DNA from: Gonapodya sp. JEL0774
Taxonomy: Eukaryota
Length of the DNA: 57,586 nt
NCBI GenBank assembly: GCA_027604505.1
Contig: JADIIX010000031.1
Location: 124,001 to 181,586, forward strand
Direction: 5' to 3'
The notes beneath the pieces are model-generated. The model saw only the letters and a list, made by a program, of their open reading frames with translations. It did not search any database and was not told where the DNA came from. Numbering within the stretch: position 1 is the first letter of the stretch; each line of letters opens with the position of its first letter. Of this stretch, positions 30,125 through 57,586 are shown one piece after another. The position numbers and the translations under genes were made by a program.

Positions 30125-32735
30125 ATGCGGAGCGTGACCCTCAATGGGCCTCTCGCGTCACTGGCGCTCTCGCCAGATGCTTCGCAGATTGCTGTCTGTG
30201 GATCCGCTGGTTTGTTTTCATTCATTTCCGTTCAGTGCGTGTTCAAAGGTTGTGACACATCCTGATTCTCAAGTCGTCAAAGTCCTGTCGCCAGGCAATG
30301 GACTGACCGAAGTGTCAAATCTGCGGACTATGATCAAAGGTGTCTCAGACTTTACCGATGTCAAGTTTTCGGGAGCGGCTGGTGGTGAGTGGCTCGAAGT
30401 CATAATTTGTGATCTCATTCTGTAATCACCGTCCAACGACTGTTTTAAGAGCCGAACGGACTTCTTGCAGTTGCTAGTACGAATGGAGTGATCGTTGTTT
30501 TGTCCAGAAACCCTGATTGGCGAGTCGGTAAGTGTTTGAAACTGATTGAATACCAGTGGCACTTGCTCATTGTTGAAGCTCACATCCGGCACTATTTGCA
30601 CCATGTCTAGATTATATCCGAGAACACACTCTCGCAGTGAATCGATTGGCGTTTCATCCGACTGACCTTCGCCTTGTCAGCGCGTCCCAGGATGGTACCT
30701 TGCGACTCTGGGTGAGTGCACCATCAAAACACCGGTTTTGCATGCGATCGGGGTCTTCTGCATTTCCGATCGCAGACATTGTATGACGGTGCTATTGTTC
30801 CGGGGTGCTGATGGCCATGACACCAAAACGTGCGATCATCGCCGTTGCGCTAATGCGTATATATCGCCGTCCCTTTCAGGACGTGTCTTCTCGCCCCTCC
30901 GTCCGAGCTCTCCTGGACGGCAAGTCTCATGCTGCACGTGACGTCCAATTTAATCCTCGAAGTTCCACCGAATTCGCGGCCGTCTTCGAATCAGGGTTCC
31001 TCCAAACGTGGGACTCTGTCCGTGGCGAACAAACAAGGAGGCTTTCGGCACACTCGGGACCGGCGCTCTGCTTGGATTGGCACTCTAGTGGATACGTCGT
31101 GGCGACAGGTGGGATGGATAAGGCGATATACGTGAGTTTGGGGAAAGCATCACTTTCATCCCTTCAACTCCCAACTGATGGCACTCAACTTCCAATCTCT
31201 ATGTACCCAAACATCACTAAACAAGCTTTGGGATATTCGAGAACCCCGCCGCTATGCCGCACACCTCCACGCCCCCTCTGGCGTCTACCGTGTCGCCTTC
31301 CGGCCCCTCTCCGACACCCAACTCGCCTCCTGCGCCATCACCTCCTCGACCAAATCTGCCGACCCTACTGTCCACGTCTGGGATTTTCGCAGACCGTATG
31401 TTCCAATCGTGTCGTGGAAACCTCACACGGGTATGGTGTCCGGGGTCGTCTGGTGTTCGGGGTTGGGACGGATCGCGACGTGCTCAAAGGATAAGACAGT
31501 GGCGATGTATGGAATCAAAGAAGGGAGGGCAGTGGTCGAGGAGTTGTCGACTTCTGCAATTGCGATGAGCTGCAGTGAGGAGATGACCTTGGCGGTGGGG
31601 CCAACACAGAGGTGAGGTGTCTTCTCATGTAAAATCGAGCGTATCCTTCCCGGGGATCTTCATCCAGATGAGGCTGTGTTTCTTATCGATTTTCGATCTT
31701 GTATTCAGCGACTACGCCAAAGACGACAGCTCGGTCCCGATAGCGCCATCCCACTCCCTCTGCGGCGGCGTGCAGGTTTCCAGTCGGGCCAGTTTCAACT
31801 ACCTCGCCGAAAATTATTCGTGGGGTAAGAAAAGGGGCACGACTCTTGTTCATTGTGAGATAAATGCCGCGGTGGGTTGAGGGTCTGTTTGACGAACTGG
31901 TTTTCTGCCCGGTAACTTTCTCTCGCCCGCTTCCCACCCCAACTCGCACGAATCTATGCTATTTCTCTCAACACCGCCAGGTCGCCGAAACTGTCGGTCA
32001 GTACTCCGTGGCCCAAACTTGGCGGATGCTGCACCTCCTCTCCCTGCAGCCTGGCGGAGCGCTGCGGACACCACACGAGTTCGAACCAGATGAGCTGGTG
32101 CTGGTGCACGATGTGCTCGAGTTTTACGCAGAGCTGGGTAACGTGCAGATGTGCGTTATGGTCCTGTTGGTGCTGGGGATGGAACACGAGATGGAGGAGG
32201 TGTGGATCGGGAGTTATGTCGGTGAGTTGGGCACGAGGGGATTGTTTGGACGTTTGGCACCTTGCCATTTTCAGAGCCGACTGAACTGTATTTGTATTGG
32301 CGGGGTGATATTTGTGGCAGAGTTGTTGAGGCGGTTACAGCTCTATGACGTGGCAACCCGAAGTGAGTTTCCCACGACCGATGGAGTTTCTATATCTGTT
32401 GAACTGCGGCACGCTCATGAAATTCGTTCACTCATACTTTTTCAGTATTGAAAGACTGCTCCAAGTCCATTTCCCATTCCCTCCAGTCTGGCCAAGTTCT
32501 CGAAACAATGTGTCCCGCATGCGGCAAATCCATGTCGGCGACGACTCTCGAGTGTCCCTCGTGCTTGCAGTCCCAGAGTCGATGCACGGTGTGTCATTTG
32601 GTTGTGTTGGGACGGTACACCTTGTGCAGCGGGTGCGGTCACGGGGGCCACGTCGAGTGTGTGGAGGAGTGGTTCGGGGAAGACGCAGAGTGTCCCACGG
32701 GGTGTGGTCATGCGTGTGTCAGTAGTAGGATGTGA
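30125..32735 (+). CDS. WDR24: GATOR2/SEA complex subunit WDR24 (Sea2/Rtc1)
   Basis: WD40 repeats with family motifs (RDVQFNP, FESGFLQTWD, AHSGPALCLDWH, VHVWDFRRPYVP), then CEINAAVA...QTWRML and YAELGNVQMC, and a C-terminal zinc finger/RING CTVCH...CSGCGHGGHVECVEEWF...CPTGCGHAC. Multi-exon. Confidence 0.95.
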
Positions 32736-33964: not shown

Positions 33965-36900
33965 ATGCGGACGTCGCTGATGCTCGCACTTTTCCTTGTC
34001 CTGCTTCCGCTGCTTGCGACAGCGGCGCCTCTTGCGTCGTCCTGCGACCGCGCTGTCGGCTGCTTGACCTTGTCGGCGCTCTCAGACTCCGCTCCCGTCC
34101 TGCCCGTCGGGCACAACCGCAAAGGCGCCCTCCTGCCGCTCAGGATCGACGTCGAGTCGGACGTTCCCAAGAATCTTGTGGTCGAGGCCTTCACTGCAGA
34201 CGGTGTGAGTGTCGTTGGAGTCTCGGGCTTTCCATTTTGGGCATATTGTCGGAAACAGCGGAGTCATCAAACGCTAATAATTTTTTTCCCTTCTCCTCGT
34301 AACAACACATGCTGATCGTATTCTTGGCGTTGTTTTTTCAGTCTACTTTCCTCGGCAAATCGCATGTCCATGGCGTGGCGTCGACCGACGGACCCGTGTC
34401 GGTGGCTCTCAACCTCCCCCGAGCCTGCGAGGATCTCATCCAATTTCTGGACGGTATCACCACTGAAGTGACCGTTATTATCCGCGCATGGCTTACTCCC
34501 GAGAACCCCAATTTCGCGCAAGCTCCTGCGAATAAGGTGTCAAAGACGGTGGTGCTGGTGAGTGCAGCAGCCTCGGGCGCACTGCTGCTGGACACCCGTA
34601 GTTCAACTACCCCTCTTTTCCAGTTTCGCCCGAACAAACCCGCCGTTCAGCAGGTCGCCATCATCGAGAATGCTGCCGCTCCTGCTCTACAGCTCAAGAA
34701 AATCGCACCCCTGGTCAAGCGGCAACGGTCATGTGACACGATCCACGCCGCTTACGCAGCAGGTGGGACGACGAACGGAAACACGTTCGACACTATGTGG
34801 TCTCAAATTTCACCAATATCGGTTGTGTCTTGTAACATAGGTACCGCGATGACCGCTCAGGATTACTCTGACTGGGCGGCTTGGAGCTGCAACACATGGT
34901 AATTTCAAAGTGTTTTGCACGTTCAGGTGTTCGTTTGGCGGCACAAACCCTCATCAACCTGATGGTTTTTATAAAGGTACCCTGGTGGCATTGGTAGTTC
35001 AAGCGGTGGTGGCGGAACAACCCGCACTTGTGACACTATTTACGCTGCCAAGCAGGCTGGTGAGTTGCGTCAGAGATGTGGTGGCATGCACATGATTCAT
35101 GTGTTGAGCCTCTTTTCTCATTATCCATCTCCAAATTTTCTCCAGGTGTGACCATGACTGCTCAAGACTTTTCCGACTGGGCTGCATGGGGATGCAACCA
35201 ATGTGAGTTCCACCCAGGCTTCTGATGAAAATGTTCACAGTCTGATCCATTTCGTTGGGCAACTTTCGCGATGGCCTTTGCAACTCAGGGTTCCCGGCCG
35301 GAATCGGTAGCCCGAGCCCACCTCCCCCACCTCCCGCTCGCACAACCACCCGCCGGACCACCACCACCCGCAAAATCACAACCACCACCGTCGCCAACAC
35401 ACCACCTCCACCCCCACCTCCACCACCTCCTCCTCCCCCGCCAGGCGTTACGACCACTCGCACTCGTACCACGACCGTGGCTGCTCAGCCACCACCGCCA
35501 CCACCCCCTCCTGGCGTTACGACCACTCGCACTCGCACTCGCACCACGACCGTGGCACCACCGCCTCCAGCTTCCGGTCCTTGCTCGAGCCCAACTGCTG
35601 GCTGTGTCGACGCAACGAGCTTCCCGGCGACCATCTCGGCCACGGCAGGTGGAGGGAGCGGGTACGTCCTGACCTTGCGTGCGTGGGCCTCTGTACAGAA
35701 GGACCTGTTTGTGGAGTTCAGAAAGGTGAGCGGAAGACCCCACTCACTGGGAAGGCATCCCATTCTCCACGTTGCCGAACGCTGACGATGCTCCACTCTG
35801 TCTTTCCCACTCCAGGACGGCGTCATCGTCTCCAACTACGCCTACGCCTCGCTCCCCGCCGCCTCTACCTCTGCCTGGACATCAATCTCGGTTACGCTCA
35901 CTTACCCGACGCAAACCGCCGGCGGCACCTACCAGTTCTTTGTGTGGCTCACTTCTCCCGGAACCAGCTGGGGTGGCCAGACGTTCAACACGGTGAGTGA
36001 GCCGATGAATGCGGTCAATGGCGCCTAGGCAATTTGTCGTGATTGGAACGCTCATGCTTGGATCTTTGCGTTCGATGTTTCTAAGCTTCTCCCCGTCACC
36101 TTGTCTGGTGGTACCACCCCACCTCCCCCGCCCCCGCCCCCACCATCGGGAGGCGGCAGGGGTAGTGCTGCAGGAGCGTACATCTCGACGTGCAAGACTG
36201 CAGGCCAATACGCTTTGACCTTTGATGATGGACCACACATGTGAGTTTGGGTTCTCGACCTGTCGTGGAGGAGGTTTTGTTTCAAGGCTACCCCACTCAC
36301 CATCGCGTGCTCTCAGCTACACTTCTGGCTTGAAATCCATCCTCGCCCAGTACGGTATCAAGGCCACGTTCTTTGTGAGTTTCTTTTTCTCTTGTGCTTG
36401 AAATAGCACGTGCGTGACCCTGGGCAAACACGACTGACCTGTACTGTATCACTCATTCCAACAGGTCAACGGACAAAACTGGGGTAGCATTTACAACTAC
36501 GGTGATCTCCTCCGAGATTCTGTTGCCCAGGGACACCAGATCGCCATGCACGGGTGGTGGGTTTCCGTTCTTGGACGATGGCACATTCCCAAGGGAAACC
36601 ATCCCACAAAAGCTCAATATGTTCCCGCCCGGCCGTAATGTGTGTTTTTAAAGGTCCCACTGTGACTTCACGGTCCCTTCGACGTGCATCTACGCCAACG
36701 AAGTCGACCAGCTCATGAACGCCATCAACAGCATCATTGGCAAAACTCCTAGCTACTTCCGGTTCCCCTACGGAAGCTACGACGGCGCTGCGCAAAACTA
36801 TGTCGCTGGCAAAGGTCTCAGGGTGAGTTTTATTGTGGCTGGGAGGAATGTTCTGGCCCGATTGGCGCATCCTCTGTGTTCATTATTTTTTTTTTTTTTG

Positions 36901-37462
36901 TGTGTTTTCGCTGCTTGCTTGGGTTCCAGATTGTTGGTGAGTCCCCCGAATAGATTATAGTGCTCTAACTTGTTGTTCACACCATTCTGATTATCGCGCG
37001 GGACGTATTTAGGCTGGAACTTGGACACCAACGACTGGCAAGACGCCGTGAGTAGGCTGAGGCGGAGGAGAAGTCACTGCAGTTCCTTGTTAACATTCCT
37101 ATTCACAGAACAAAGCCGATCCATCTCTCACACTTGGCACCATTCAGGGTGCTTTGAACTCGGTTTCCAGTTCCTAGTGAGTAGCTTTCTGCGACCTTCG
37201 TCTCGAACGCGCAAACCTCTTGTCGCATTCAAATAAACTCTCCCTGCCTGATGCTGATGCGCTATATCCCCGACTTTTTTTTTTATTTCTTCACCATGAC
37301 AGTGCTACTTGGGTCGCTCTTGAGCACGACGTGTGGCCCACGACCGCCGGTGCAACTTCCAACTCGTGGATCTGGGCGGGTCTGTCCTTCATTCAATCCA
37401 AGGGATACCGCTTTGTGACGATCGCAGAGTGCGATGGTGACTCAACCGGTGGATACCTTTGA
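33965..37462 (+). CDS. Secreted modular polysaccharide (chitin) deacetylase, CE4/NodB family, paralog 1
   Basis: Signal peptide MRTSLMLALFLVLLPLLATA. All five CE4 motifs appear after splicing: TFDDGP, HGWSH, RFPYG, DTNDW, LEHD. Many short GT-AG introns. Confidence 0.95.
35400..35565 (+). repeat. Pro/Thr linker duplication (PPPPPPPPGVTTTRTRTTTVA x2)
   Basis: Near-identical DNA copies of ggcgttacgaccactcgcactcg...accacgaccgtggc. Confidence 0.85.
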
Positions 37463-37895
37463 GTATAATTTCGTACGACAAGGATCAGGGCGGAAGACAT
37501 GGAAGGGAGGGTTGGACTTTGGAACTACATAATTATGCATGGAGAAAGTGCATCGACGTACCAAGCGTTCTTGTTATACTAAGTCTTGCAAAAGTAGAAT
37601 AATACGTCGCAAGGAAAACAGACCTTGCAAATATGTGTACATGGCTGTGTTTACGTCACATGTTCGTTTTTTCTCCCCCTCGTGCAAAAATTTTGAACTG
37701 AGGTTGGGGCTCGACCCCCGACTGAGCTGGCCACACCCTGCCACACCCCGCAAAGAACGACGAAACTTTGCATTGCTAACAAGGCCTACGATGTTCAGCA
37801 GCCACTTATACCTCTTGTACACTGCGAATTTTCGGGCAAATTGGACGGCTTCAGTTCAATAGAATTTCCAGTCCAACATTATTTATTTCGGTTTG

Positions 37896-37943
37896 TCAAG
37901 GGGCGGTGTGTCCTGGTTGATCGTGTGACCTCACCCTCAGCTT
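37896..37943 (+). promoter_or_regulatory. Upstream motif shared with the first deacetylase gene
   Basis: TCAAGGGGCGGTG ... CCTCAGCTT, matching 33886-33916. Confidence 0.35.
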
Positions 37944-38048
37944 GAGCGCCGAGGATCGCGCCAAGATGGCCTTCTATGGTGTTTTTTGTACGCCCGTTTG
38001 AAAAACTTTCAAACCCAAAAGTGGAAAGAAACCAGACTCATTCACACC

Positions 38049-41000
38049 ATGAAGCTGTTTCTACTCGCTTTGGTCCCGCTTCTGACCCAGGCGTCGCCGG
38101 TGCCTTCGCTACCGTGCGACCGTGCCGTGGGCTGCGTTGACTTCTCTCCAGTCGCCGATTTGATCCCCATCTTGCCCGTCGGACGAGAGCGAAACGCCGC
38201 GCTTCTCCCTCTCAAGCTCAACGTCTACTCGGACGTTCCCCGCAACCTTGTTGTAGAGGCCTCCACCGAGGATGGGGTGGGTAGTTGCATCACTTCTTGG
38301 CACCGAATCGGATGCATTCCCACACTAAACGGACCTCGATTTATATATCTATTCTCAGCTCTATTTCCTTGGCAAATCTCATGTTCACCGGGTCTCATCT
38401 TCCGCGCATCCGGTACCGGTGGCAGTCGATCTTGCCCGGGTTTGCGCGGAATTGACCGACTTCCTGGAGGGCACTGTTCACGAGTTGAAAATCACCTTGA
38501 AAGCGTGGCTTACTGCAGACGATCCCAACACTGAAGCCACCGTGTTGACCGAAGTGAAAAAAAATGTCGTCGTTGTGAGTACCGGCTTGGTGTCGCTGAT
38601 CTGGTTGGACTGGAACCAACGTGTTGCGTCCTTCCCGGTCTTGGCAAACCTAGACTCGCCCAGTTGTTGGAATTTCAACATTACAACAGCACAGCATTAT
38701 GGAAACAGATGAATCCAAGATGGTCTCTCCCTTGATTAAGCGCCAGCGCTCTTGCGATACCATTCACGCAGCCTACGCAGCAGGTACGTCATCTAAACAC
38801 AAGTCTCAAAGCCTCATGCAATCTGCACACAATCTACTTTTCATATCTGGATGATAGGAACCGCCATGGTGTATCAGGACTTCCTTGACTGGTACACCTG
38901 GAAGTGCAACACGTGGTGAGTACCGGGCAGCCCTTTCACCTGAACGAATGTCTGTCTCAACTCACTCACATGATCTCTTCAAGGTACCCCGGTGGCATTG
39001 GTCGCTCGTGCGACTCTATTTTCGCCGCATACACAGCAGGTTCGTCAATCTAATATACTTGGTCATGCCAGGGAAGACCGAAACCTTCTCACTTATTTGA
39101 ATCGATCCGTGCACGCTCAGGCGTTGCTATGGTAGCTCAAGATTATTCGGACTGGTCAGCATGGAAATGTAGCACATGTGAGTCTCCCGCGACACTTACT
39201 GTGCACCCAGCAAATCCGTGCATCATGCGCAATCCATGTCACTCTGTTAGGGCACCCAAGCGGTATCGGCAGTGGTGGATCCACTCCTCCACCTCCCCCA
39301 CCACCTCCGACCGGCAGCAGCCCCTGCGCGAACGCAGCCAACGGATGTGTCGACACCTCGAGCTTCCCGACTTCCATCTCTGCAACAGCCGGTGGAGGTG
39401 GTGGATACACGTTCAGCTTCCGTGCATCGGCATCCACCCAAAAAGATGTGTTTGTCGAGTTCCGCAAGGTGAGCTCAAAACGTTACTGCGGGAAATGGTC
39501 GTTCCGGTGTACTGACCGCCCGTCCTCCTCGCGACCCCCGGGCCCGTTTCAACTAGAACGGTGTCATCGTCTCGAACTATGCCTACGCCTCGCTCGCTGC
39601 TTCCACAAGCTGGACAACTCTCTCGGTCACGCTCACGTACCCCACACAGACGGTCGGAGGTACATACCAGTTCTTTGTCTGGCTCACTGCCCCGGGTAAA
39701 AGCTGGGCAGGTCAGACGTACAACACCGTACGTCAGATTGCACGTGCTTGGCGTCAAGACCGCGGTACACTCACATTTCTCAACATTGTACATGCCCTCA
39801 GCTCCTCTCCGTAACGCTCAGCGGGGGATCCTCGCCACCTCCTCCGCCTCCTCCCCCACCTTCTGGAAGGGGCGGCAGCGCTGCCGGTGCTTATATCACG
39901 ACATGCAAGACTCCCGGAATGTATGCTCTTACTTTTGACGACGGCCCTTACATGTGAGCTTGCAATCGAGGGCCTGTTTATTTGAGCAGTTTTGTAAGAA
40001 TGACGTATGTATTCCGGAAACCACCAGCTACACTGCAGGTTTGAAATCTATCCTCGCACAGTACGGTATAAAGGCTACTTTCTTCGTGAGTCTACATGGC
40101 AAATTTCTATCGAATGTACCAAAACTTGACACTGAGAATCGCCACAGGTCAATGGGAACAACTGGGCGAGCATTTACGACTACGGGGACCTTCTCCGAGA
40201 CTCCGTCAATCAGGGTCACCAGATTGCCATGCATGGCTGGTAAGAAACGATGCACTTTTTCTTTTGAAAAGATTCAATCGCGATGGAATCTGAGTCTGAT
40301 TTATCGCTGTCACCTTCTTTGCTAGGTCACACTGCGACTTCTTGACCCCCGCCACCTGCCCGTACTACTCCGAGATTGACCAACTCATGACGGCCATTCA
40401 GTCCATCATCGGACGTACCCCGAGCTACTTCCGGTTCCCGTACGGTGACTTTGATTCAGCGGCTCAGAACTACGTGGCGAGCAAAGGACTTCGGGTACGT
40501 CGCAAGGCCGCTTATAATCGTGTTTTACCGCCGTGCTGATCGTATTGTCTTTCTAATGGGATCATGTGAACGAATCTCGGATGATCGTGAATGCAGATCG
40601 TCGGTAAGTGATTGTAGTACCCTATGATGCATTGAAACTGCACCTGCTTACTAGGAACGCTATTTGATTACACGTATAAGGTTGGAACTTGGACACCGAA
40701 GACTGGACCGACGCAGTGAGTGACTTGTTTGCCGCGGGTTTTCTTATTTGGAAGCTTTGGGACTGATCTTTCGGTGAACTCAGAACAAGGCAAACCCGAC
40801 GTTGTCGCTCAACAACGTCCAAAACGCTCTGAACGCGGTCGACAGCTCCTAGTGGGTTACTCTCCCGTCACACTCTGTTTTCCCCAAGTTGTTTCCTCAT
40901 CACTCACATTTTACATCGTATTATTTCTCCCACGCCAGCGCCACGTTTATTCCCCTCGAGCACGACGTGTGGCCCACCACGGCCGGTGCCACATCGAACT

Positions 41001-41098
41001 CGTGGATCTGGGCAGGCCTTTCGTTCATCCAGTCCAAGGGATACCGTTTCGTGACTGTAGCTGAGTGCGACGGTGATCCTTCTGGTGGATACTTTTGA
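38049..41098 (+). CDS. Secreted modular polysaccharide (chitin) deacetylase, CE4/NodB family, paralog 2
   Basis: Signal peptide MKLFLLALVPLLTQA. Motifs TFDDGP, HGWSH, RFPYG, DTEDW, LEHD. Architecture and intron pattern closely follow paralog 1. Confidence 0.95.
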
Positions 41099-42050
41099 GG
41101 AGGTACCGATGGAAATAAAGTACGCAAGGGGGGGGTGATCACGGGATAAACGAGTTCGGCTTTGAATTATACTATTTTGGTCATACAGCTGCTTGTCTTT
41201 GTACTGAAACTGAATTATATATACGTGCCAATTCGCAGATATACCTCCTCGAAACCGTGCAGGAGGGAACCCAACTGCGCGCATGTGACCCGGGTCACAC
41301 TGCGAAAGTGGCAAACGCGACTGGTCTCATTCAACTCCTTTTTGGTCGCAGACAATCCGCGCCCACCAAGGCGTTGTATTAGCTGCAGTCAAGAAAGTGC
41401 GGACAATCTTCCGTGAGATCTTGTTGAGATTTCGAATGAGTTGATCCCCGCATGGTCGTGGTCCCTGGCATTAAAGAACTTTCCAATGTTTCAAACCACG
41501 TACGTATAATAGGATTCACAAGAAGATATAAACTTATAATTCTTTTCCTTGATTCTCCCTGGCAAAACTCAAAAGTAATGTTTCCTGGGAAGTGTGGAGA
41601 TCTTTGGCCTCGTGCGTCCCCGTAGTTGCCAAGATCGAGATCGCCAAGCGTGGGGAACGCTGTTTGTTCTGGTACATAGAGGAATATGGACCGATTTTCA
41701 AGAGCTGCTGGTCTTCCCAAATAGTAATATTGGCCGTCCAGAGCTCATCCTCGTGGCGGAACTCGCCATTGCAGGAGCAGATTGTCATGAACCAAACATG
41801 AGACGTTTGACAGCCAACTTCGTGTACGCTGCAATTCTCTTGGCTGCGAAGTTCAAAAGCTGTTACCGCCTCGAAATGGGGACAAAGGTCTTCCATTTTT
41901 GGAATTGCAGGCCCGCTCAGGCCCGCGGGTCAGGTCGCAACCAATGGAGGCTGTTCCCCCCCAAAAAAGTTCTTGCATTAATCCCGAAACACCGCCCAAA
42001 CTCCGTTCACCCCAGGAGTTTCTTTCGTTGTTCTTGAGGTCTGAAACGGA

Positions 42051-45000
42051 ATGGCTCGCCTCGCCCGTCCCTGGTCGTTTCTGGCCTTTCTCGCTTTGCT
42101 CGGTTTGGTGACCCTCGCGCGATCGGCTCTCGCCGATTGCTCGGGAAACGGCGATTGCGTCAATGTTTCCGACGTTCCTGACCAGCTGCCAGTTACATTG
42201 ACGGGGCAGAGCCGGAACGGAGCCGTGGTACGGCTCCAGCTCAATATCCGGTCAGCAGCCCCTCGAAATCTCGTCCTTCGAGCGACCACCACTGATGGGG
42301 TGAGCAAGATTTGTCAATTGACGATGACTTGTGAACATCAACAGAATGATCCCTTTCTTGTCATATGCGTTACGTGTGGTGCATGTATACCTTCTTCCAA
42401 ATTCGGCCATCGGGAACTTTTGACACAGAACAAAACTTTGGGAGAAGCTCGGCTACACTCGATCCAGTACAGCGATATATCTCCAGTGACTGTAGGCGTA
42501 TCTCTCCGTCCAAATGATGACGCAACGGGCCGTTTTCTCGGTGGGGTGGACACCCAACTGACGCTGACCATCACAGCGTGGCTGGCAACCGACAACCTGG
42601 AATTCGAAACCGACGAAGCCACTAAAGTCCAAAAGACAATCACTGTGGTATGTACCACTGAAACGTTATGCTTCGTTTGAAACAACGGGGCCTGTGTTGC
42701 ATGGGAAGTTTGAAGGGCTGACGTCCGGTCACATTGTTTACTTTTACCTGATATTCACAGACCCGTCCAGCCCCTGTCTCGCGCGAACCCATTAGCATAT
42801 CTAAGTCGTCGAGCTCTTCGAACTTGCGTGCCCGTGCGCCAGCTTCTCCATGCTCTGACGGTGGCGCAGGTGGCTGTGTCGACACCACTCGGCTCGCGTC
42901 ACTGTCATCGAGTGGCGGAACGTTCACGGTGCAAATTTATGCATGGGCACCCACAGCAAAAGACTTGTTTGTTGAAATTCACGACACCGCGACCCAGGCT
43001 TTGCTGTCCAACTATGGCTGGATCTCTGTCCCTGCTGCGACCACGTCATCGTTCGGTCTATACACGGTCTCACTCACTGTTCCTGCGCTTACCGCCGGTC
43101 CATACAACTACTATCTCTGGATGAGTGATCCTGGTGCCGGCTGGGCAGCCCGCTCTTATTCGCAGGTACGTGTGCTCGCGTGCCCCCGCCTGCTTTGAAG
43201 CCGGCAAATTACCAAGACTCACGATGATTCAACACACTACCAGAACGCTGCACTGTCAATCGTCTCGCTCACTTCCCCATGTAGCGGGGGTCAAATCAAC
43301 TGCATCGATACATCTTCCCTCCTTACCACGGTCTCAGCGAATGTCGGCACCTTCACCGTCAATGTCGGTGCATGGTCATCGAAAGCCAAAGATCTGTTCG
43401 TCGAGGTCCACCAAACATCTGATGGCGCCCTCCTCTCCAACTACGGCTTTATCGCGCTCCCCGCGGCGACGGTCTCGTCCTTTTCGACGTATCCAGTTCA
43501 GCTCACAGTCCCCGCGCTGACTCCTGGCGTCGCGTACAACTACTACATATGGATGTCTGATCCAAACGCAGGTTGGGGAGCAAACACCTACTCCATCAAC
43601 GTGCCCATCACTGTCACGCAAAGTTCCAACGCCGTGACCACCACCAAGGCAGCAACCACAACCGCTGCTGCAAAGACCTCGACCAAGATCACGACCAAGA
43701 TCACGACCACCACCGCAGCGCCGAAAATCTCTACCACAACGGCGACACCCAAGGTAACCACAACCACCGCCATAGTTCGGACGTGCGATACCATCTTCGC
43801 TGCCTCCAAAGCAAACACTCTCACAGCCCAAGACGTTGCCGATTGGGCTGCATGGTAAGCTCCGACGATCGAGTGAAACAGGTGTTCCAGCCAAATAGCC
43901 ACATTTTCACCGTAATGTTCGAACGCGTGCTTGTAGGTCCTGCTCGACGTGGTATCCCAGCGGCATCACTCCCTGCACGGGCAATGCTGCGCGCTGCATC
44001 ACTGGTTTTCCTGCAACAGTTCCGCAAACGAAGTCCGTCACCTTCACCGTGAGCGTTTTCTCAATCGCTCGGGAAGACCTCGTCTTTCAAATTCAACAGG
44101 TGAAGAATCCGCGGGTATTCTGGTTGCATCATACGATTTGCATTTGCTCATTGGCTTCGTGTTCTGCAGGCCGGAGTTGCCGCCTCACCTGAATCTCGGT
44201 TGGCTGTTGTCAGTACCTCGGGGGCGTTGGTCCAGCTTACATTCACCCTCACCTACTCCACGACGCTCACAAACTCGCCATACACTCTTGTATGGTACTT
44301 TGCTCCCACTGGCGAGGGCTTCAGTGCCGCAACCATGCAAGGTCAAGCAAGCGTGACCCTCGCTGCCATCACCAGCCCCTGTACCGGAACCAGCACCGGA
44401 GGATGCATCGATACCACAACCTTGCCGCTCTCCGTATCTTACTCGGTTGGAACTATCAACCTGAACATTGGTGCATGGTCCGCGACCAAAAAGGATCTCT
44501 TTGTGCAGCTTCAAAAGTCCGCATCGGCGGTCACCGTTTCCAACTACGGGTACGCAAGTGTGGCTGCTTCTTTGAGCTCGGATTATACATCGTACCTGGT
44601 TACGTTGAATGTGCCGCCGTTGGTGAGATGTGCCGGTTTGTCTGAAATTGGGTTTGATCTGATCGTATTGCCTCCTGTTTTCGTGTCACCTGTAGACAAG
44701 CGGACCTTATCAAATCTTTGTGTGGATGACAGACCCAGGCAAGGGCTGGCCATGTAAGTAACGTTATATACATGTCAACCTTCGCTCTGTTTGTGCTAAT
44801 TGTAATCTTGAAACTACCCGCACTATATTAGCTGTGTCATACCAGTACGTATCATCTGTTACTATCACCGGCATTGTCACTCCGTTGCCCGGCGGCGGTA
44901 GCCCCGCGGGTTCTTACATCGATAGTTGCAAAACGCCTGGTCAATATGGTGGGTGATCTTTGAGACAGCTTCGGGAGACAATAAGTGTCGAGTTATGGAT

Positions 45001-45961
45001 TTCACAACCTCTTTCGTCGTGTCACTTCAGCTCTGACTTTCGATGACGGACCATACATGTCAGTTTGATTCTCATGTCACGAATATCATTGCTTTCGCTT
45101 CCGTCTAACTGCAATTGAAAACTATTGCAGGTACACTGAAGCAGTGAAGACCATCCTGGCCAAGTACAACATCAAAGCGACGTTCTTCATGAACGGTTTC
45201 AACTGGGCGCCTATCACCGATTATAACGCGACGCTCCAGGACTCGATAGCAAAAGGGCACCAGCTTGGAATGCACGGATGGTACGGAGATTTTGTTGTAC
45301 GCCTTTTTGTTCAAGCAGACGGTGTCTTAGTGTTCTGTGTTCTTCTCGGGATCAGGTCCCACTGCGACTTTTTGAATCACGCCAATTGCTCGTACCCTGC
45401 CGAAGTTGATCGCCTCGCTAGCACCATCCACGATATTATCGGAGTATACCCTACCTACTTCCGATTCCCCTACGGTGACTACGATGACCAAGGTCAAGTC
45501 TATGTGGCATCCGAGGGGTACCGGGTGAGTACGGGATAATTTTTATTTGAATAGCGAAAAAGGTCTTCTCGTTTTATTGAAATCGCTACTTTGGTTATTT
45601 TGAATGGCGTAGATTGTCGGATGGAGCATCGATACCCTCGATTACACGGCAGACAATATAGCGAACACCACCCTGTCTCTTCAAAACATCAAGAATGTTC
45701 TCGAGGGTCAAAGCTCTTCAACGTGAGATTTTGTCGCACTCACTTCGTCTCTTGTTACCTTTGTTCACGAGTTCGTCTGTCCACTGCTCATCCTTCTATA
45801 GTTACAGCACCATCAGCTTATCACACGATGTCCACGCAACAACCGCTGCAACCTCCAACGCGTACTTGGAGTCGGCAGTGCAATACATCCTCTCCAAGGG
45901 CTACACTTTTGTGACGGTCGCAGAGTGCGACGGTGACCCATCGGGAGGATATCGGACCTGA
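42051..45961 (+). CDS. Secreted modular polysaccharide (chitin) deacetylase, CE4/NodB family, paralog 3
   Basis: Signal peptide MARLARPWSFLAFLALLGLVTLARSALA. Five beta-rich modules and one Trp/Cys module precede the catalytic domain, which has TFDDGP, HGWSH, RFPYG, DTLDY and LSHD. Confidence 0.95.
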
Positions 45962-49600: not shown

Positions 49601-50122
49601 CTGTACTTGGCAGAAGCCGCGCCAGAGGGTAAGACCCGCAATGACCTTCAAGCGGAGTGGAAGACAATGACGGAAGCGGACAAAAAGGTGAAGATCCGAT
49701 CCGTAGTTCGGATGTTCCAGCGACTGATCTCTTTGCGTGTAGCCTTGGACGGACAGGCACGAAGCACTGCAGAAGGATTTCCAGAAGAAGAAGGCGGAAT
49801 GGGCTGCTAAGCAATCGGGCACTGCCACTGCCGAAGCTGCCGAGGAAGATGAGGATGAAGGCGAGGAAGCAGACGAAGAAGGGGTCGAGGATGAAGACGA
49901 AGACAGCGACACGGATGATGACGATGAGGTGCGTTCAAATATTCAAGCCTGGCGAGCTAGTTTGATTCAATAACCTTGGCTCAACAGTAGGTGGATACTC
50001 CTCAAAACGCGAACAGCAGCGAGCTTATTCGAGGTGCAAATACTTTCAACGCTTTCAAAACGGATTCTGATTCGTCGGGGGATGAGGATGAGTGGAATAT
50101 CGACAAGAGTCAATCGTCGTGA
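46672..50122 (+). CDS. Lys/acidic-rich protein with three HMG boxes and acidic tail
   Basis: Spliced boxes: PNRPPPPFMAFRKE...SERWKVLSDEEKKEY...YKEEKVQW; PKRPTTAFFLF...GEIWKTLSSEERSVY...YKEEIMAW; PHPPLNAYFLY...AEWKTMTEADKKPW...FQKKKAEW. D/E-rich tail; probable stop at 50120-50122. Confidence 0.85.
47918..48127 (+). repeat. Degenerate 33-bp (11-aa) coding repeat, about six copies
   Basis: KSGAETASKAS / KSGTEAASKA / KSNAEENIKFS / KPGPETTDKGL / KTGIEISSKTS / KSGSETANKAS. Confidence 0.75.
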
Positions 50123-50628
50123 CCAAATTGCGAATAGTTCTGCTTTGGTTTCCATTCATGTGTAGTGTCCTTTCTTGGAAGAAAATATATAGTCACGTCA
50201 TCAATAGTTCATCAAACAAAATATGGTACCATGTGAATAAGCAAGGTCTTCTCTCCTGCGCAGGAAAATTTGAATCACAATATCGCGGCGGGTGCAATTT
50301 GGCGGGCGGCGACCTAGTCGCTAACCCTATGAACGTTGCTCGCGGCAATTGACGGACGTGGTTGACGACGAAAGGTTCGCCTTACCCTCCTGATGGCAGC
50401 GTGCTCCGACGCACGCGGTGGAAACGGCCGACCGCCGGACCGGACGACATCCCCGATGAACGGGCACGGTGCCACCGCCAATTGGAGTGTTGCGGACTCA
50501 ATTGAACTGATCATTTTATGTAAAAGCCAGACACCGTAACTCATTTTACTGTTGTTCCAAATCTACAAGGTATAACGGCCAAGATGATATCTCCCGTGGT
50601 GATGGTGCACTCGCGCGTTGGGCGATCA

Positions 50629-53199
50629 TCATATTCCCAATTCCTCCCACAGTTTCTTCTTATCTAAAAATCAGTATGCACGTTAACCACGAATTGATTT
50701 CCGCGACTCAAACCCATTACCAACTCACGGCGCACAATCGCATCATCGAGCCTGCGGTACATTTCTTCGTCCCACCCACTTCCGGGATCCAACTTCTGGG
50801 CAAGTTTCATCCGGCTCTGCTGAACGTTAAGCACGATAAGTGACAATTTCCGACAAAAACTCTCGGCTGATTGATGGAAGACTATTTCGAAGGTTGGAAT
50901 AGCGTTATCCGCGTCATCGAGTGCAGCCTTGCACAGTTTGCTGCGACGGAAACGGAACTTTTGCGCTGAGGGTCGAGACACTAACCTCTCAATGATACAA
51001 TCACTCACATATCGGGGTTAACAAAAACAGTGACCATCCTCTCAGCCGTCCTCACGATTTCTCGGGCTCCCTTGATATCCGAGCGTAAAGCCGTGCCAGT
51101 GCACACCAAAATACCTGGGTGATGCAAATCATCATAGTGAGTAATTGCAGGGGAGGGCTTGGGCGGACGAGAAACTGGAATTACGCCGACGCTGCAGTGG
51201 TTTACTGAGATACCCCAGACTCACTCGATGGTCATTGTACAGAAGCAGATTGGGTCTCAAGGGTACCCCACAAGTTCTCATACGTCTGGTAGTACCGTTT
51301 CCAAGAGTAGAAATAGTGATTCGAGAGCGTTTTCCGAGTAACCCGTCACAGACACCTACCGTTTAGTTCCTGTGACGTTTGTACAGTACTTTTCGCAAGA
51401 GGGATTTAGTAGGTCATCAACTTCGTCTGCCGATAATCTCTGAATCTTATGACATTTTGGCTAAGAAGACGCAATATTGATGTAGAATGAGCTTGTGGAT
51501 CGACTAGTTCGGGTTTTAACACCAGTCGACCTATTCGATCAAAATAACTCACACAAAAGCTCTCAGCCAAACTTCCATGCAGCTGAACGCAGATTTGCCT
51601 CTTCTCTGGCGGCACATAATCATATTCGTCCGGGTCCCCAGAAGTTTCTTGGCTGCACCACTGATCCTTCCCGCTTTCCTCTGAAGTGAACGGAGAGGAG
51701 GCAACGACACTGGGCAAGGAATCTACCGACCAGGTTGACAATGGGGATGAGTCTTCAGTACTGTGGTTGAGAAGTCGAGCCTCAATGTTATCAATGTTCT
51801 GCGAGTATACTCTGCGAAGCTAATGTCCGAGTGAAGATGTCCGAATCAAGAAGAAGAAATGTTAGAACATTGTAGTTCTTGGTACCCTATCTTTTGAACC
51901 AATTTCGTTGAAGGTACATTGTTCTTTCGACTTCGATTCCGAGTTGTACAATTCACCCAGTACTATGCTGGAGATGCTCTGCGGCAAACTCAACACTCAC
52001 CATGTCAAAACCTGCCAAGATCATTAAAAAGTCATGGTACGACGTTTTCTTGGCTTCTCGTGCGGCTTTCACAAAGTGGGCGACGACTTCCGCAAACTGA
52101 TTGACAAGGGTTGAATCAGCAAGGATGGGAGGAGTTGCCAGTCTCGGAATGACCTACTCACAACTTCTTGAGGGGCGAAATTCAGCCTTCTCGTGGTGAG
52201 TTGGGAAGTCGGATAGACCTTGCGGGCGTCGAACAGGTCCTGGGGCTGGTGGTCGCATGCGGGAAACTCAAAGCTCTGTACGGTTGAGATATATGTCTCA
52301 AATGACAATTTCGTACCTTTTGAACTGGGTGCCGAGGGTGTTATTTGTGGGAGGACTGCGATGTCGAATAACAAATGATGAGCTTACAGTATCGACGCTG
52401 CTGCTCCGTAAAACGACCCTGAAAGGTGTTGAAAATGCTGTTCCCAGAGGCAAAGTCCTGCTCAAAAGATAGATGGGATATGAATCATTGGGCGGGGTTT
52501 AACAAGCAGCAGAGTGCTCCATTCAAGAAGTGCAAAAGCACATACAGGAATACCAGCATCAAGAGAGATGCCTGCACCGGTGAGAAATACAAACGGACGT
52601 TCTGAAGGGTTGTCTTCGACGTCTGTGCCCGTTTGGGTATGAACGAAGTTGGCATCACCAGAACCACCACCACGCATGGACTTACACTCGACAAGTATTC
52701 CAAATACTGCTGTCAAACTTACGAACTCGCTCCACTTTTTTCGATCCTCGTCGGTCTTAATTTCCGATGGTTCAGTGATGTGTTCGTCCAGACCAGCCAA
52801 CCTTCGAAGGAAGGGAATGGACTTCGGGATTTCGTCTTTCGCCAGATGATATCCAGCCTTAGACGCAGATTGGACGTGGCATTGAGATTCGTCAAATTTC
52901 GCTCTTTGGGCATCTGTACCCCAAATCTGAGTTGTATGCTCGCCAGGGTAGAGGCTCACCATGACGGAATAAGGCCACGGAACGCTTAATCCAGAAATGA
53001 AATTCTCTCCCATGCTCCAATGAAATTCACGAGGACGAGGCGGAGCATCGACTGGCGGTTGTGTGTGGACAGATGGGGGCGCGACAGTCTTCGGCAATAT
53101 GTTGTATGGACCGATTCGTCTGCCCAACACGTCTGCTCCTCCAGATGGCGCATTCAGCGATTGCTGTCGAATCTGCTTCTGCTTTTTTGCAGGGGGCAT
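50629..53199 (-). CDS. Divergent Sir2-family (sirtuin) NAD-dependent deacylase, Hst3/Hst4-like
   Basis: Motifs in order across exons: VFLTGAGISLDAGIPDFAS, DLFDA, TSYHDFL, RVYSQNIDNIE, VQLHGSL, CPKC...C, LRPNLLLYND, LVCTGTAL, VFVNPD, FEIVFHQSAESFC. Two small junctions (about 52250-52390 and 51180-51225) are unresolved. Confidence 0.85.
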
Positions 53200-53317
53200 A
53201 TCCAGCGTGGGGAAGAACTTTCGATGTGAACAACCTTTGCAGGGTGACGGAGTGCAAGGACCTCCCGACAATAATGCCAGTCATATTCATACAGCCTGTT
53301 ACAAAGCATTCCAGCAA

Positions 53318-53695
53318 TCACAGTCGCTGTGAGGGCGAAAGCTGATGCCCTCGACGTGGTGAGCGTCCTGGCCGTACTGGCGACTTTAAAAAGCATTCAT
53401 TCATTCTCTCGACATCCCAGTGGCTCTGATGACACTTCACCATCAAAGCGAACTTATTCTCCACTCAACCACCTTCCACTTAAACCAAACGAAAAAGTCT
53501 GTATTAGCAATCTCATATGCATCTCCACCCCCTCCTTGGGAGGGTGACGGTAATTCTCCGCGCCACCTTGCGGCCGGCGCATCCCAGAACGCCCTCTGCA
53601 ATGACCTACCTGTTATGGTGGTCCTGGTGCAGAGGTGGAGGACGTAACTACATACATGATTCAGTGATTCTACCACCGAGTGAGCTCAAAAGCCC
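53318..53695 (-). ncRNA. Candidate Fanzor omega-RNA scaffold (structured non-coding region)
   Basis: At least seven stem-loops lie immediately 3' of the Fanzor stop on the same strand. Most contain G-U pairs that form only on the minus-strand transcript, and one is capped by a GCAA (GNRA) tetraloop. Ends are not defined. Confidence 0.6.
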
Positions 53696-53879
53696 TTTGC
53701 ATAAATTGACCCAAACTCTTCCGGAATACCAACAGCCAGCAAGCCCCAGCCCATTACTCCTGTGTACTAAAAGGAAGTGTGTATGTGGCAATGTACTTGA
53801 TCAAGTTGTAGTCCATTGATCAGTGACTGTCAGTCCTCCTTGTTCATTACTCGTTGATCCTGTCTTCATCCATCCCCAA

Positions 53880-56800
53880 TCATTTACCATCAGCTTCGCT
53901 TGGATCACTCTCCTGGGATGACTCCTCGGGTTCTTCGGTACCGCCATCCAAGTGTGGTGACTGCGCGCGGGCATTCAGCTCCCACACGTCCAGGCCCTCA
54001 TCCTCTGCACGTTGGAGTTGCTCTCGAGTAGGTCGAGCATCTCCACGATCATCACCTTGCTGACGTGATCGGCCTCTTCGAGGTGTACCACCACGGCGTG
54101 AACGATCAGCTCCCCACAATTGAGTCCGCTGTGCAGGCCGACCCCTTCCAGCACTGTCGTCGTCGTCACTCAGATCAGCTCTGCGGTTCCGGAGCCGTGC
54201 TTGACGGAGTTGTTGAACAATGTGGGGTGGTGTAGCAGGATCCGCCTCCCTCCAGTGATCGGCCTTGGGCGGGGCTGGTGGCCAGCGGGGATCAACATTC
54301 CAGTCTGGTCGGTGTCCCAGTGATGTTGAGTATGCATGCTGGGTGAGATCAAAGAAGATGGCTGACGCAGTATCCCTGTTCATGTAAACACGTTGCTGGC
54401 CACCAGGACGAGGGAGCACAAATCGTGGGTGGGTGAGGTCGTTGCAAGTGTGAACGCGCCAGGTCTTTTCGTGCTCTGAATGTTCCAAAGAGAGAGGTAG
54501 CACACGCACACACCAATCAGCCACAATGTTTTGTAGAGGCAGGTTTCGCCAGGTGTCACGACGAAAATATTCATCGCGTCTGTAAACTTTCACAACTTAC
54601 CAAGAAACCGCTCAGCACAGCGTGAGACGGGGTAGTGGTTGGTTTTGCACCACCAAGTCTTGTGCCGCAAAATTTCGCTCGTCGGGCGGTTCTGTTGTTG
54701 TCGGGTGACTCTGACGTACGCATTCGGTCGTCTCCTTTCGACACTTTGGGAAAGATTGGTAGCCAGTAGGGTTTGACAGAGTTTGGAGGACGGAGGGAAT
54801 GAAGTTACATGTATCAGTTTAGCAATATCAACACAGATCACAGAGCGTGTGATTCCATGTTGTACCACCAAGAGGGGGAGAAGGCCCTTGGTTTACTCAC
54901 GGGTGAGGGCACTTGAGGTGCCAGACTCCAGTCCAGTTGAGATAGTTGTGGCGATCTGTTTCGTACCCGATTGCGAGAGGATCTTCTGTGCTGGAGCCCT
55001 TCTCGGACACGATGATGACAGTAGTCTGCCGGAGCACGGCAAGTGCCTCAGTGGAACCCTGCATATAGAGAGGCGTTCGAGAAAAAACATGGGGGGAGGG
55101 CAAAGAATGTCGTAAAGAAAATGTTGAGTGCATTTTTGGACAGGATGCACAGGAGCAAAAACGATTGAAGCCAAGGTCAAAATCGAATTCAATTTGTCCC
55201 AACGTATCACTGTTTGTAGTACTCACTCGGAAGGACGCGGGAGCGTAAGGTCCACGCTTTTCACCTCCTCCAATTCCGATCGTGAACACAAATGGATCAT
55301 TTTCAGGCAGTAGAGAAGGCTGAGCAGCTTCGCGGCCATCTCGATCGAGTTTCTCGTGCTTGGGCCCAAACAGATTCCAATGCGCACGATTTTCTCGTCG
55401 AGTCTCGACATTGTTGCGTTCCACTGCTCTCAGACAGTAGAGCCTCGTTCTGTTGACAACATCGAAGCCGTCGGGTGATCTATGCGTTGGGTGCCTGCTC
55501 CGCTTTTTTGGGATGTACGTTCGAGAGGGCTTTCGATGCAAGATCAGATGATCGTAGAGCAGGCATGGTTGGGTTGATTGGCAATGGTTACACACTTTTT
55601 CTGTTAGATTGCCACGCAATATATAAATCACAACACGCAACATACCAAAAATCCCCTTAGATCCAGTGCGAACATCTTTTCCCCCCGTTTCCTCGCAACG
55701 TTCATGTCAAATCGAGACTTGCGAAATTTGGGACTTCTCCAAAAATAACTCATACTTGTGAGATTATTTTTGGATGTTCATGTCAAAATAACGTCGACGA
55801 ACAAAGTTTTTCAATGTGTGGAAACGTTGAGTATGTCAATCTTGTGTTTGAAAGGAGTAATGAGACAGCACAACTTACATTGCATTCGAGAGATTAACAT
55901 TGTTGAGATATTGCAGAGTCTCTTGCGTATTTGCACCATGTCGGTAGTTCCTCAAGCCCTTGACGTTCGTGATGGATTCTGAAATGAAGGTGAATCAAGT
56001 GAAAGCGTATTTGATCCATCAGTGATCAGAATGTCCGCACAAAGGGCACGAGCGCATAGTTACGCACCATTGATGTCGGGATACTCCTTGCGGGCTACTT
56101 TCTCCAAGGTTTCATGCTGGCGATGTTGAAACACCCAGCTTTAGATTTGAATTGCAGAGTGTATGGCATAATCAGCGCGAGTGTGATGGTAACCAAGGGT
56201 CCATTCAAAAAATCAGTCAACATCGTTAATGCAATCCACTGTACCACAACACTCACTTTGACAATTGTGACGAGTAGTTCGATTCTTCACGTGGCTTTTC
56301 TTTTCTTGGAGTGCTGCGTCCCGATCTACTCTGGTGGCCTGATCTGCAGCATTTTGAGGATACATGACCCCTGGAGCGGCGTTGCTTGTACCGGCAGCGG
56401 CAAGCATCTCTTGTGCGTTGCGACAGAAGCGGTGAATTTTTCGCCTGTTTCAAGATCACAACGTGTGCAATATTGGAGAAGTTTTACAATGAGGAAGCAT
56501 GAATCCACATGGAACAGAATCCCAGATCGGTAGAACCCAAGAACAGCAGCAACTCACCGGTATCAGCAGCTGCATGTCTCACCCCTGGAGCCTGAAAACG
56601 GGCTGGATGTAGGACAGTGTTTCGAAGCATGGAGACAATTTGACCTGTTGTCTCCACTGGATCTTCTGCGATGATATTGTAACCGAGCTTGGGATTCTGG
56701 CGAAAGTCTTGCCAGGTCTTGATCCGTCCTGAGTGCCACCCAAAAAAAAAGTTCGATCAAATTACTGCAATCTCTAGGCTGCTGCAGGTCTGGGTTTCCA

Positions 56801-57586
56801 AACAGGAACTTACGGCCGTGCTGATGTGCATCTTTCTCACGAATACTTTCCGTTTTGCATTCCTGTGGGAGTTTTGAGGGGTCCAATTGTAGCTTGAGAT
56901 AGGCCACTTCACCATCGTGCGAGAAGTTAATTTGTGTGACTGGAATTCCGATCCCATTGGGGTACGCTGGGCATGCTGCAAGTAAGAGTTTTATGGTGAT
57001 GCAAATTCAACAGGCACCGGGGTCAATTGGTGTTGCAAATTCACAGAGGGACAAAACACCATTTGGTTTCCAATTCCAGGTTTGACTCACCCCTTTTCAT
57101 GTTTTCCTTGTTGTAGAAGACCTTTAACTGTTGTTGCGGGTGGTTTGCTTGTGGATGTCGAACATCAACGGCGTGCAACTTGTCCTCCACTCCCCAGACC
57201 CGAAGCATGATATCGACCTTCTGTGCTGGAGTCACATTTGTACTGTGGTAAAGCTCGTGCAAGTTTCGATGATTCTGGTTCTGCAAATTTTGCGGCAAAG
57301 CGATCCGAACAGGAGATGTGAGGAAAGGGTTGTTGGGAGGAGGGTTGGTCAGGTATTGGCACAGGAGAACGGTACCAGCCCAGCCCATCTCGGAGTGATC
57401 TGGAGAAAATCAAGCGTGGACGGGAGGGGGGCGCGATCAGATTTCGAACAAAAGAGGCACGCAAAAATCCGCATGCACGGTAAGAATGTGACCAATCCAG
57501 AAATTTCAGGGGGATTGCAACTTAGCATTTTGTCTCCTTGACAGCATAAAAGCAGTTCAGTTACTCACAGACACCCCGTTTTCCAA
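53880..57586 (-). CDS. Fanzor (eukaryotic TnpB/Cas12-like RNA-guided endonuclease), intron-containing; 5' part lies outside the window
   Basis: Spliced motifs in canonical order: INFSHDGEVAYL (WED TDG-like), NIIAEDP (RuvC-I D, 56663-56661), YFWRSPKFRKSRFDMNVARKR, FTIGIGGG, TVIIVSEKGSS (RuvC-II E, 55004-55002), TWRVHTC, YMNRDTASA (RuvC-III D, 54374-54372) and GHRPDW. Eleven GT-AG introns predicted in the window. Confidence 0.8.

Follow-up and report, generated by a model that had tools for sequence, protein, structure and literature searches.

Within the Fanzor1 group of RNA-guided nucleases, structures have been solved for SpuFz1 (8GKH, 9CEU-9CEZ), PpFz1 (9CF0-9CF3) and GtFz1 (9CER-9CET) (PMC10432273, PMC11423790). 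We analysed a gene on the minus strand of contig JADIIX010000031.1 of Gonapodya sp. JEL0774, in a stretch of 57,586 nucleotides (hereafter the window), which an earlier note had described from the letters of the DNA as a hidden Fanzor nuclease with eleven introns and an intact D-E-D triad. The gene reads from 57586 to 53880 (a 3,707-nt region) and likely descends from Fanzor1. It resembles the solved proteins in its order of blocks (RuvC-I Asp, bridge-helix-like segment, RuvC-II Gly, rearranged Glu, RD and RP) and in a structured element 3' of the gene; a long insertion inside RuvC is likewise described for PpFz1. In contrast to them, it shows no direct sequence match, no CxxC after the Glu, the motifs DPV, SEKG and RDTA, insertions elsewhere, at least 11 introns, a long tail and no visible terminal repeats. 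SpuFz1 is a multi-copy gene with one open reading frame (ORF), whereas the gene of the window is split by introns.

Fanzor1 proteins are already on record for the genus. Supplementary Table 1 of Saito 2023 lists KXS09892.1 (449 aa) and KXS17374.1 (845 aa) from Gonapodya prolifera, the second probably with introns, since it spans 3,489 nt for 845 aa. By eye, KXS09892.1 and the gene of the window have in common a bridge helix of the form F-x-V-A-R-x-R, followed by an insertion, and a residue other than D preceding the catalytic Glu, but KXS09892.1 is intronless by its coordinates and keeps CxxC. Neither protein was retrieved by searches with the window protein, and therefore neither is close. 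Intron densities of up to ~9.6 per kb are given for Fanzors by Jiang et al. 2023 (PMC10530073), where intron-containing Fanzors likewise carry a rearranged catalytic Glu, and where CrFNuc of Chlamydomonas is multi-copy in Helitrons and gave no cleavage in the authors' assay. A precedent for domestication in this protein family is provided by the TldRs, nuclease-dead TnpB repressors (PMC13565253), which are bacterial and have lost the nuclease, whereas the acidic residues of the window gene appear kept. No eukaryotic TldR-like case was found in the titles or abstract openings of the literature searched. Searches for Fanzor with Gonapodya, for the accession and for the locus tag found no printed account of the locus, and no KAJ33 or JEL07 entry occurs in the legible part of the Saito supplement. 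Intron-rich Fanzors and Fanzor1 in Gonapodya are published; the novelty lies in how far the gene has diverged, in its lack of the canonical finger, in its apparently single copy and in a public model that is mis-spliced.

The eleven introns proposed in the earlier note all run from GT to AG, with lengths of 85-169 nt. Nine of their donors read GT[AG]AGT, the other two being GTGCGT and GTATGT; across the 3,707-nt region, GT[AG]AGT has nine sense-strand occurrences and none in antisense. Each of the 11 introns has a lower G+C content than the exon before it, the peptide fragments quoted in that note were all located in exons, and the density is ~5 introns per kb of coding sequence. From these features we infer that the minus-strand gene 57586-53880 is spliced. 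From the exon that begins at 56138 downward, the proposed introns leave a single open frame to the TGA at 53882-53880.

When the open frame 55529-54901 was used as query, the single protein retrieved was KAJ3341245.1 (HDU93_005436; a hypothetical protein of 669 aa from Gonapodya sp. JEL0774). Most predicted exons agree with it at 100%, one exon after another, and this protein is thus the public model of the locus. It starts at the ATG at 57388, places the intron 5 donor at 56290 and the acceptor at 56117, and omits exon 8 (55754-55646) together with the first part of the next exon (the stretch 55754-55449). The gene is thus not hidden, as had been claimed, but annotated as a hypothetical protein that lacks exon 8.

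The contig of KAJ3341245.1 measures 181,586 nt, that is, the window plus exactly 124,000, so that the end of the window is probably the end of the contig. The 5' end of the gene probably lies outside the assembly: only the last 18 nt of an upstream exon are visible (57586-57569, followed by a GTGAGT donor at 57568), and the gene probably runs off the contig end there. Since the RuvC-I Asp falls near residues 340-490 in the Fanzor1 seeds described below and after ~180 visible residues here, about 200 N-terminal residues may be outside the assembly. There is no second copy of the gene in the window or among the annotated proteins (a cluster of 1), and no terminal repeats were seen in the window, which lacks the left end.

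To compare the gene with Fanzor1, seed sequences were fetched from 352 viral and metagenomic loci by degenerate DNA patterns for the Fanzor1 Glu motif, which is absent from the window gene. In the first set, 118 distinct motif ORFs, less 30 that were TnpB- or Fanzor2-like, very short or broken, gave 88 and were reduced to 48; the 57 of the second set were drawn from 235 of 308 motif ORFs. An alignment of 41 seeds matched the solved proteins SpuFz1 (E 7.5e-55), PpFz1 (2.3e-54) and GtFz1 (3.9e-38), which identifies the seeds as Fanzor1. A spliced model with exon 8 and the intron 5 of KAJ3341245.1 scored 17.5 bits with the 48-seed profile and 15.2 bits with the 57-seed profile (pairwise E ~1e-7), against best scores of 5.6 and 5.0 bits in 2,000 shuffles. 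KAJ3341245.1, which lacks exon 8, scored 6.1 and 2.3 bits; exon 8 carries most of the Fanzor signal. A control profile of eight TnpB/Fanzor2-like sequences gave the spliced model only 1.9 bits. When 897 natural ORFs were scored, five stood above the spliced model (four with Fanzor motifs and one unidentified), the maxima of the remaining 892 being 5.8 and 8.6 bits. A blind six-frame scan without splicing ranked the piece that contains exon 8 first of 1,472 (E 0.03-0.04), and a separate second match, in the right order, fell in the finger/RuvC-III region (E 0.001 alone). The ESM Atlas contributed a sub-threshold lead (0.83) to giant-virus clusters, one of them with PF07282 on 11% of its members, which is a lead only. 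Overall, descent from Fanzor1 appears likely, on a weak signal from several concordant tests.

A number of results weigh against this assignment. No relative was found with HMMER among 1.84 billion representatives; Pfam returned only one irrelevant family (E 0.22), NCBIfam and PADLOC returned no relevant match, and a PDB sequence search with two pieces and KAJ3341245.1 gave nothing relevant. Profile-profile alignment with hhalign reached a probability of 3-4% (E 0.011-0.014), and 0.4% for KAJ3341245.1. The profile score, moreover, comes mostly from one amphipathic helix. Besides these, a word index of 5.8 billion clusters returned only the locus's own protein, although one such search, which used a Fanzor-seeded alignment yet returned no Fanzor, is uninformative on relatives. 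Pfam applied to 39 long ORFs of the window found no family for the six pieces of the gene, ESM Atlas gave no usable match for residues 100-535, global hhalign gave nothing, and none of three pattern matches to related loci in viral contigs was confirmed. The interpretation as a Fanzor is partly supported: profiles, motif blocks and the blind scan favour Fanzor1-type ancestry, while no library profile matches and hhalign stays low, and an RNA-guided nuclease is a prediction.

These negative results, with 15-17 bits that would be insignificant in a search of billions of proteins and a motif-chain score near that of the best natural control (below), are what would be expected if this were an unrelated, lineage-specific fungal gene whose short motifs look Fanzor-like by chance. 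Such a gene would hardly come first in the blind scan, match two profiles at the pairwise E noted above, yield a separate and correctly ordered finger/RuvC-III match and give an independent language-model lead to the same clan, and we consider this explanation distinctly unlikely.

Motif blocks were placed on a 735-aa model, whose numbering is used for the triad candidates D176, E456 and D572. The best unconstrained positions of the RuvC-I, bridge-helix, rearranged-Glu and RuvC-III blocks coincide with the residues named in the earlier note and fall in order. The block chain scored 49.8 against 14.7 +/- 6.7 in 300 shuffles (best 45.1), and a five-block chain 39.7 against 16.2 +/- 7.7 in 269 natural controls. 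At the N-terminal side, exon 2 (57399-57091) is presumed to hold the end of the REC/WED region; residues 1-200 have no profile support. In exon 3 (56975-56814), the best TDG-like WED strand by block score is PNGIG at 56961-56947 (+4.2 bits); SHDG, previously taken as the TDG motif, lies 14 residues later, scores -4.1 bits on the TDG block and was rejected. Exon 4 (56728-56558) carries the candidate RuvC-I Asp in NIIAEDPV (codon 56663-56661), where the block gives +3.9 bits against -3.7 at the next position in the first 300 residues; AEDPV was aligned to the DPG of the seeds in one MAFFT run and elsewhere in another. Exon 5 (56409-56257), whose acceptor is uncertain from the comparison of splice sites, profile and codon model, and exon 6 (56138-56068), placed by the proposed introns and by its match to KAJ3341245.1, lead to exon 7 (55978-55879), a putative helix within the main profile match. 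There follows the bridge-helix-like segment of exon 8 (YFWRSPKF...), the top piece of the six-frame scan, with a block score of 19.3 bits.

In exon 9 (55529-55227), alignments and block scores point to an insertion of ~60-75 residues and then a degenerate RuvC-II strand, FTIGIG, with Gly in place of the canonical Glu. The candidate rearranged catalytic Glu, E456, stands ~35 residues later in VSEKGSS of exon 10 (55058-54901; codon 55004-55002). Both were aligned to the near-invariant G and the invariant E of the seeds, their block scores being low (4.3 and 4.1 bits), and the pair reproduces the Fanzor1 hallmark of a RuvC-II Gly with an alternative Glu ~45 residues further on. The intron between these exons (55226-55059, minus strand, 168 nt) is stop-free in the coding frame; if it were retained, the RuvC-II Gly strand and the candidate Glu would be separated by 56 further residues, at the site of the region named lid in Fanzor1 structures. 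Two cysteines of a divergent finger region lie in exon 11 (54743-54601), for which the codon model favours another open frame. The last exon (54475-53880) holds C-x4-H, the candidate RuvC-III motif NRDT (Asp codon 54374-54372) and GHRP by alignment and blocks, and ends, before the TGA, in a low-complexity tail of ~130 residues. Its RD, at residues 571-572, scores 9.0 bits against -1.3 for the next position and comes 23 residues after the last Cys (548), in agreement with the 5-50 residues of the family motif.

Several observations, on the other hand, weaken the assignment of the triad. The five-block chain exceeds the best natural control only narrowly (39.7 vs 38.5), the RuvC-I and Glu blocks score only 3-4 bits each, and with its Asp column masked the RuvC-I block is left with 0.1 bit. 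In one MAFFT run, the RuvC-I position was taken instead by a stretch that carries Ala. The D-to-E distance is 280 residues against 150-206 in 35 seeds, the E-to-D distance 116 against 38-101 in 31 seeds, and the contexts DPV, SEKG and RDTA, which replace DP[GN], DE[FY] and RDxN, all three depart from the family. No Cys is found at E+7 or E+10. The Ala-bearing stretch itself was discarded as RuvC-I, as it lies outside the six best block positions and direct scoring picked another APG, at residue 200. What remains of the proposed intact D-E-D triad is three acidic residues at the best block places, in divergent contexts and with over-long spacings. The divergence that the earlier note described (DPV for DPG, RDTA for RDxN) is real, and of the motif order it proposed, the blocks hold while the TDG and finger assignments fail.

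The published family motif consists of a first D, 125-275 residues, [TS][TS]xx, a four-cysteine (C4) finger directly after it and RD 5-50 residues on (PMC3627910), the finger directly after [TS][TS]xx being required (PMC3627910, PMC13565253). From D176 to the SS at 459-460 there are 282 residues in the 735-aa model, and in-frame splice forms of 687-708 aa fall inside 125-275. The finger positions after SS, however, hold Asp and Ala, and the first Cys comes 31 residues past the Glu; exon 10 lacks CxxC at E+7/E+10 and shows an HxxC further downstream. CxxC occupies the finger position in 57 of 57 seeds, which had been selected for CxxC. H484-x2-C487 with C548-x4-H553 could form a substitute finger. 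As one defining feature, the C4 finger, fails, we regard the gene as a variant and not as a member of the family.

A single-sequence AlphaFold model had a pLDDT score of 37 and was unusable, with no RuvC or meaningful fold match, which again speaks against a Fanzor assignment. With 27 Fanzor rows added, KAJ3341245.1 reached a pLDDT of ~60-80 over residues 281-390 (47.7 for the alignment-guided model); the top 15 VIA-align rows for this model were all Cas12, TnpB or Fanzor2 (Z 5.8-7.6), and Foldseek placed SpuFz1 first (E 0.065). Built on Fanzor rows, this model is no independent evidence; exon 8 is missing from it, and its Z values lie in the common range of the tool. It shows, as a prediction, that the KAJ3341245.1 sequence would tolerate the fold.

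The phase clash flagged in the earlier note is genuine: the proposed introns lead to a first stop at codon 276. There are 274 in-frame two-intron solutions across the clash, that of KAJ3341245.1 being one. The rescue suggested before, with a donor at 56582 and an acceptor at 56445, does open the frame, but it is the second lowest of the 274 options (10.9 bits, 57-seed profile) and puts exon 5 in its less coding-like frame (-6.9 vs +1.6 bits, by a crude codon model trained on three window ORFs), and it was not retained as the likely junction. The 24-27 bits of the top splice options are best-of-274 picks and were not used as evidence. When an X was inserted at successive breaks, scores with the 48-seed profile were 12.5-15.2 bits upstream and rose to 16.6-18.7 bits once the break fell within 56260-56097, the step being smaller with the 57-seed profile; this places the frame change within 56260-56097. 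Its possible sources are a non-default acceptor, the weak donor of KAJ3341245.1, an assembly indel or a real frameshift.

That consensus donors and the nearest acceptors break the frame weighs against an intact gene, and it is the core of a second explanation, in which a one-base frameshift in 56260-56097 would have recently disabled a Fanzor1-derived copy, truncating the protein after RuvC-I and leaving no nuclease. Joined to the first plausible acceptors, the strong GTGAGT donors lead to the stop at codon 276; by profile as well as by codon use, the exon-5 frame is best kept as far as 56260-56097 and changed there; and the in-frame alternatives need either the weak donor GTGAAG or the skipping of two AGs past a branch-like site. 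Yet the lesion would be the only one in ~2.2 kb of exons, with 11 of 11 donors still near consensus; an assembly indel would look identical, and NCBI's predictor did find an in-frame path. We regard a disabled copy as doubtful. Given at most one lesion in ~2.2 kb of exons and consensus donors throughout, the gene would be alive or only recently dead. Apart from the single clash, the coding frame of the exons is stop-free despite an identity of only 13-20% to the seeds, so the gene has presumably been under selection as a protein for a long time. The description of the copy as intact nevertheless goes further than the sequence allows, in that the default splice sites break the frame, the C4 finger departs from the published definition and the 5' end is probably outside the assembly.

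The same divergence could have arisen in a gene that no longer cuts. A domesticated Fanzor, kept as a single-copy host gene with an RNA/DNA-binding scaffold and without cleavage, like a bacterial TldR, would account for the host-like intron density, the absence of an annotated paralog and of a second copy or terminal repeat in the window, the broken C4 finger, the altered neighbours of all three acidic residues, the large insertions and the new 130-residue tail. Dead derivatives, on the other hand, usually lose the acidic residues, and all three seem kept here; neither G. prolifera nor any other fungus yielded an orthologue in the searches, and a contig break within the gene is what a repeat might cause. 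A repurposed, non-cutting protein is thus unlikely in our judgement, if somewhat less so than a chance resemblance. An improbable further possibility is that the Fanzor has left its transposon and become a fully host-adapted, single-copy protein that binds or cuts DNA under RNA guidance; its His/Cys finger would then be rebuilt, its tail new and its own structured guide RNA encoded 240 nt downstream.

A candidate for such a guide was found after the gene. Across 54400-53171, scanned in windows, z dropped below -3 at 53680-53551 and nowhere else. On the gene strand, the 126 nt of 53645-53520, which lie 240-360 nt past the stop codon, fold into a closed multi-hairpin structure of -61.1 kcal/mol with z -4.4, a value reached by none of 200 shuffles, with the ends set by hand; the other strand gives z -2.6. 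In fixed 120-nt windows the element reaches z -3.1, a level that 6 of the 384 blind windows equal or exceed. No match came from Rfam over 50000-57586 at E up to 1, nor from ARAGORN over the whole window, and no second copy of the element exists in the window. As an omegaRNA scaffold, 53645-53520 is a lead only, and it could equally be part of the promoter of the next gene. Elsewhere on the minus strand, 120-nt windows starting at 1636, 736, 42286 and 13636 have z -3.5 to -4.0 (dinucleotide shuffles), as strong as the candidate guide.

Taken together, we favour, tentatively and short of calling it probable, a spliced fungal gene, likely derived from Fanzor1, whose in-frame splice form would encode an intact, strongly diverged RNA-guided DNA endonuclease. 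By profile match, the predicted protein would contain the WED strand, the RuvC-I Asp, the bridge helix, the RuvC-II Gly, the rearranged Glu and the RuvC-III Asp, with insertions between them, and another ligand set, for example HxxC ... C-x4-H, may replace the canonical C4 finger. By analogy with the solved Fanzor1 proteins (PMC11423790), it would load an omegaRNA, its REC/WED region would read a short target-adjacent motif, guide and DNA would pair over ~15 bp, and both strands would be cut at the single D-E-D site. The candidate guide would consist of the folded element 53645-53520 and the bases that follow it.

Other features of the window are of separate interest. The next gene downstream (53280-51000, minus strand) shows by eye a GAGIS-x-DAGIP motif, which we take to be typical of sirtuins; no confirmation came from searching its single pieces against Pfam and PDB. 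Three or four tandem paralogous genes lie ~3.7-4.9 kb apart on the plus strand at 34700-45950 (families D3, D5-D7, D9, D11 and D13-D16), and their pieces presumably resemble polysaccharide deacetylases. Related stretches in inverted orientation at 17700-18550 and 28610-29450 resemble each other over 234 nt at 73% and over 37 nt at 84%; they are probably a pair of paralogous genes, one on each strand. Three minus-strand frames, at 3-2555, 7516-10023 and 24568-26904, run without interruption for 778-851 codons; they belong to no Pfam family and are unusual in this intron-rich region. Pieces of a mitochondrial carrier gene (5468-6385, minus strand, PF00153) and of a WD40 gene (30787-31491, plus strand, PF00400) were also recognized.

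The published introns in Fanzors and the Fanzor1 of Gonapodya limit the surprise of the locus. If the protein is active, it would extend the range of eukaryotic RNA-guided nucleases to a form without the canonical zinc finger, a nuclease with no detectable relative among 1.84 billion representatives, accompanied by a guide candidate that can be tested. In the case of domestication, the bacterial TldRs would have a eukaryotic parallel. The public model of the locus illustrates how a Fanzor can be concealed when automatic annotation leaves out the exon of the bridge helix. Should the host-adapted reading be true, the gene would have been missed by Fanzor searches through its divergence and through a public model that drops the most conserved exon, and a hidden layer of such genes might exist in early-diverging fungi.

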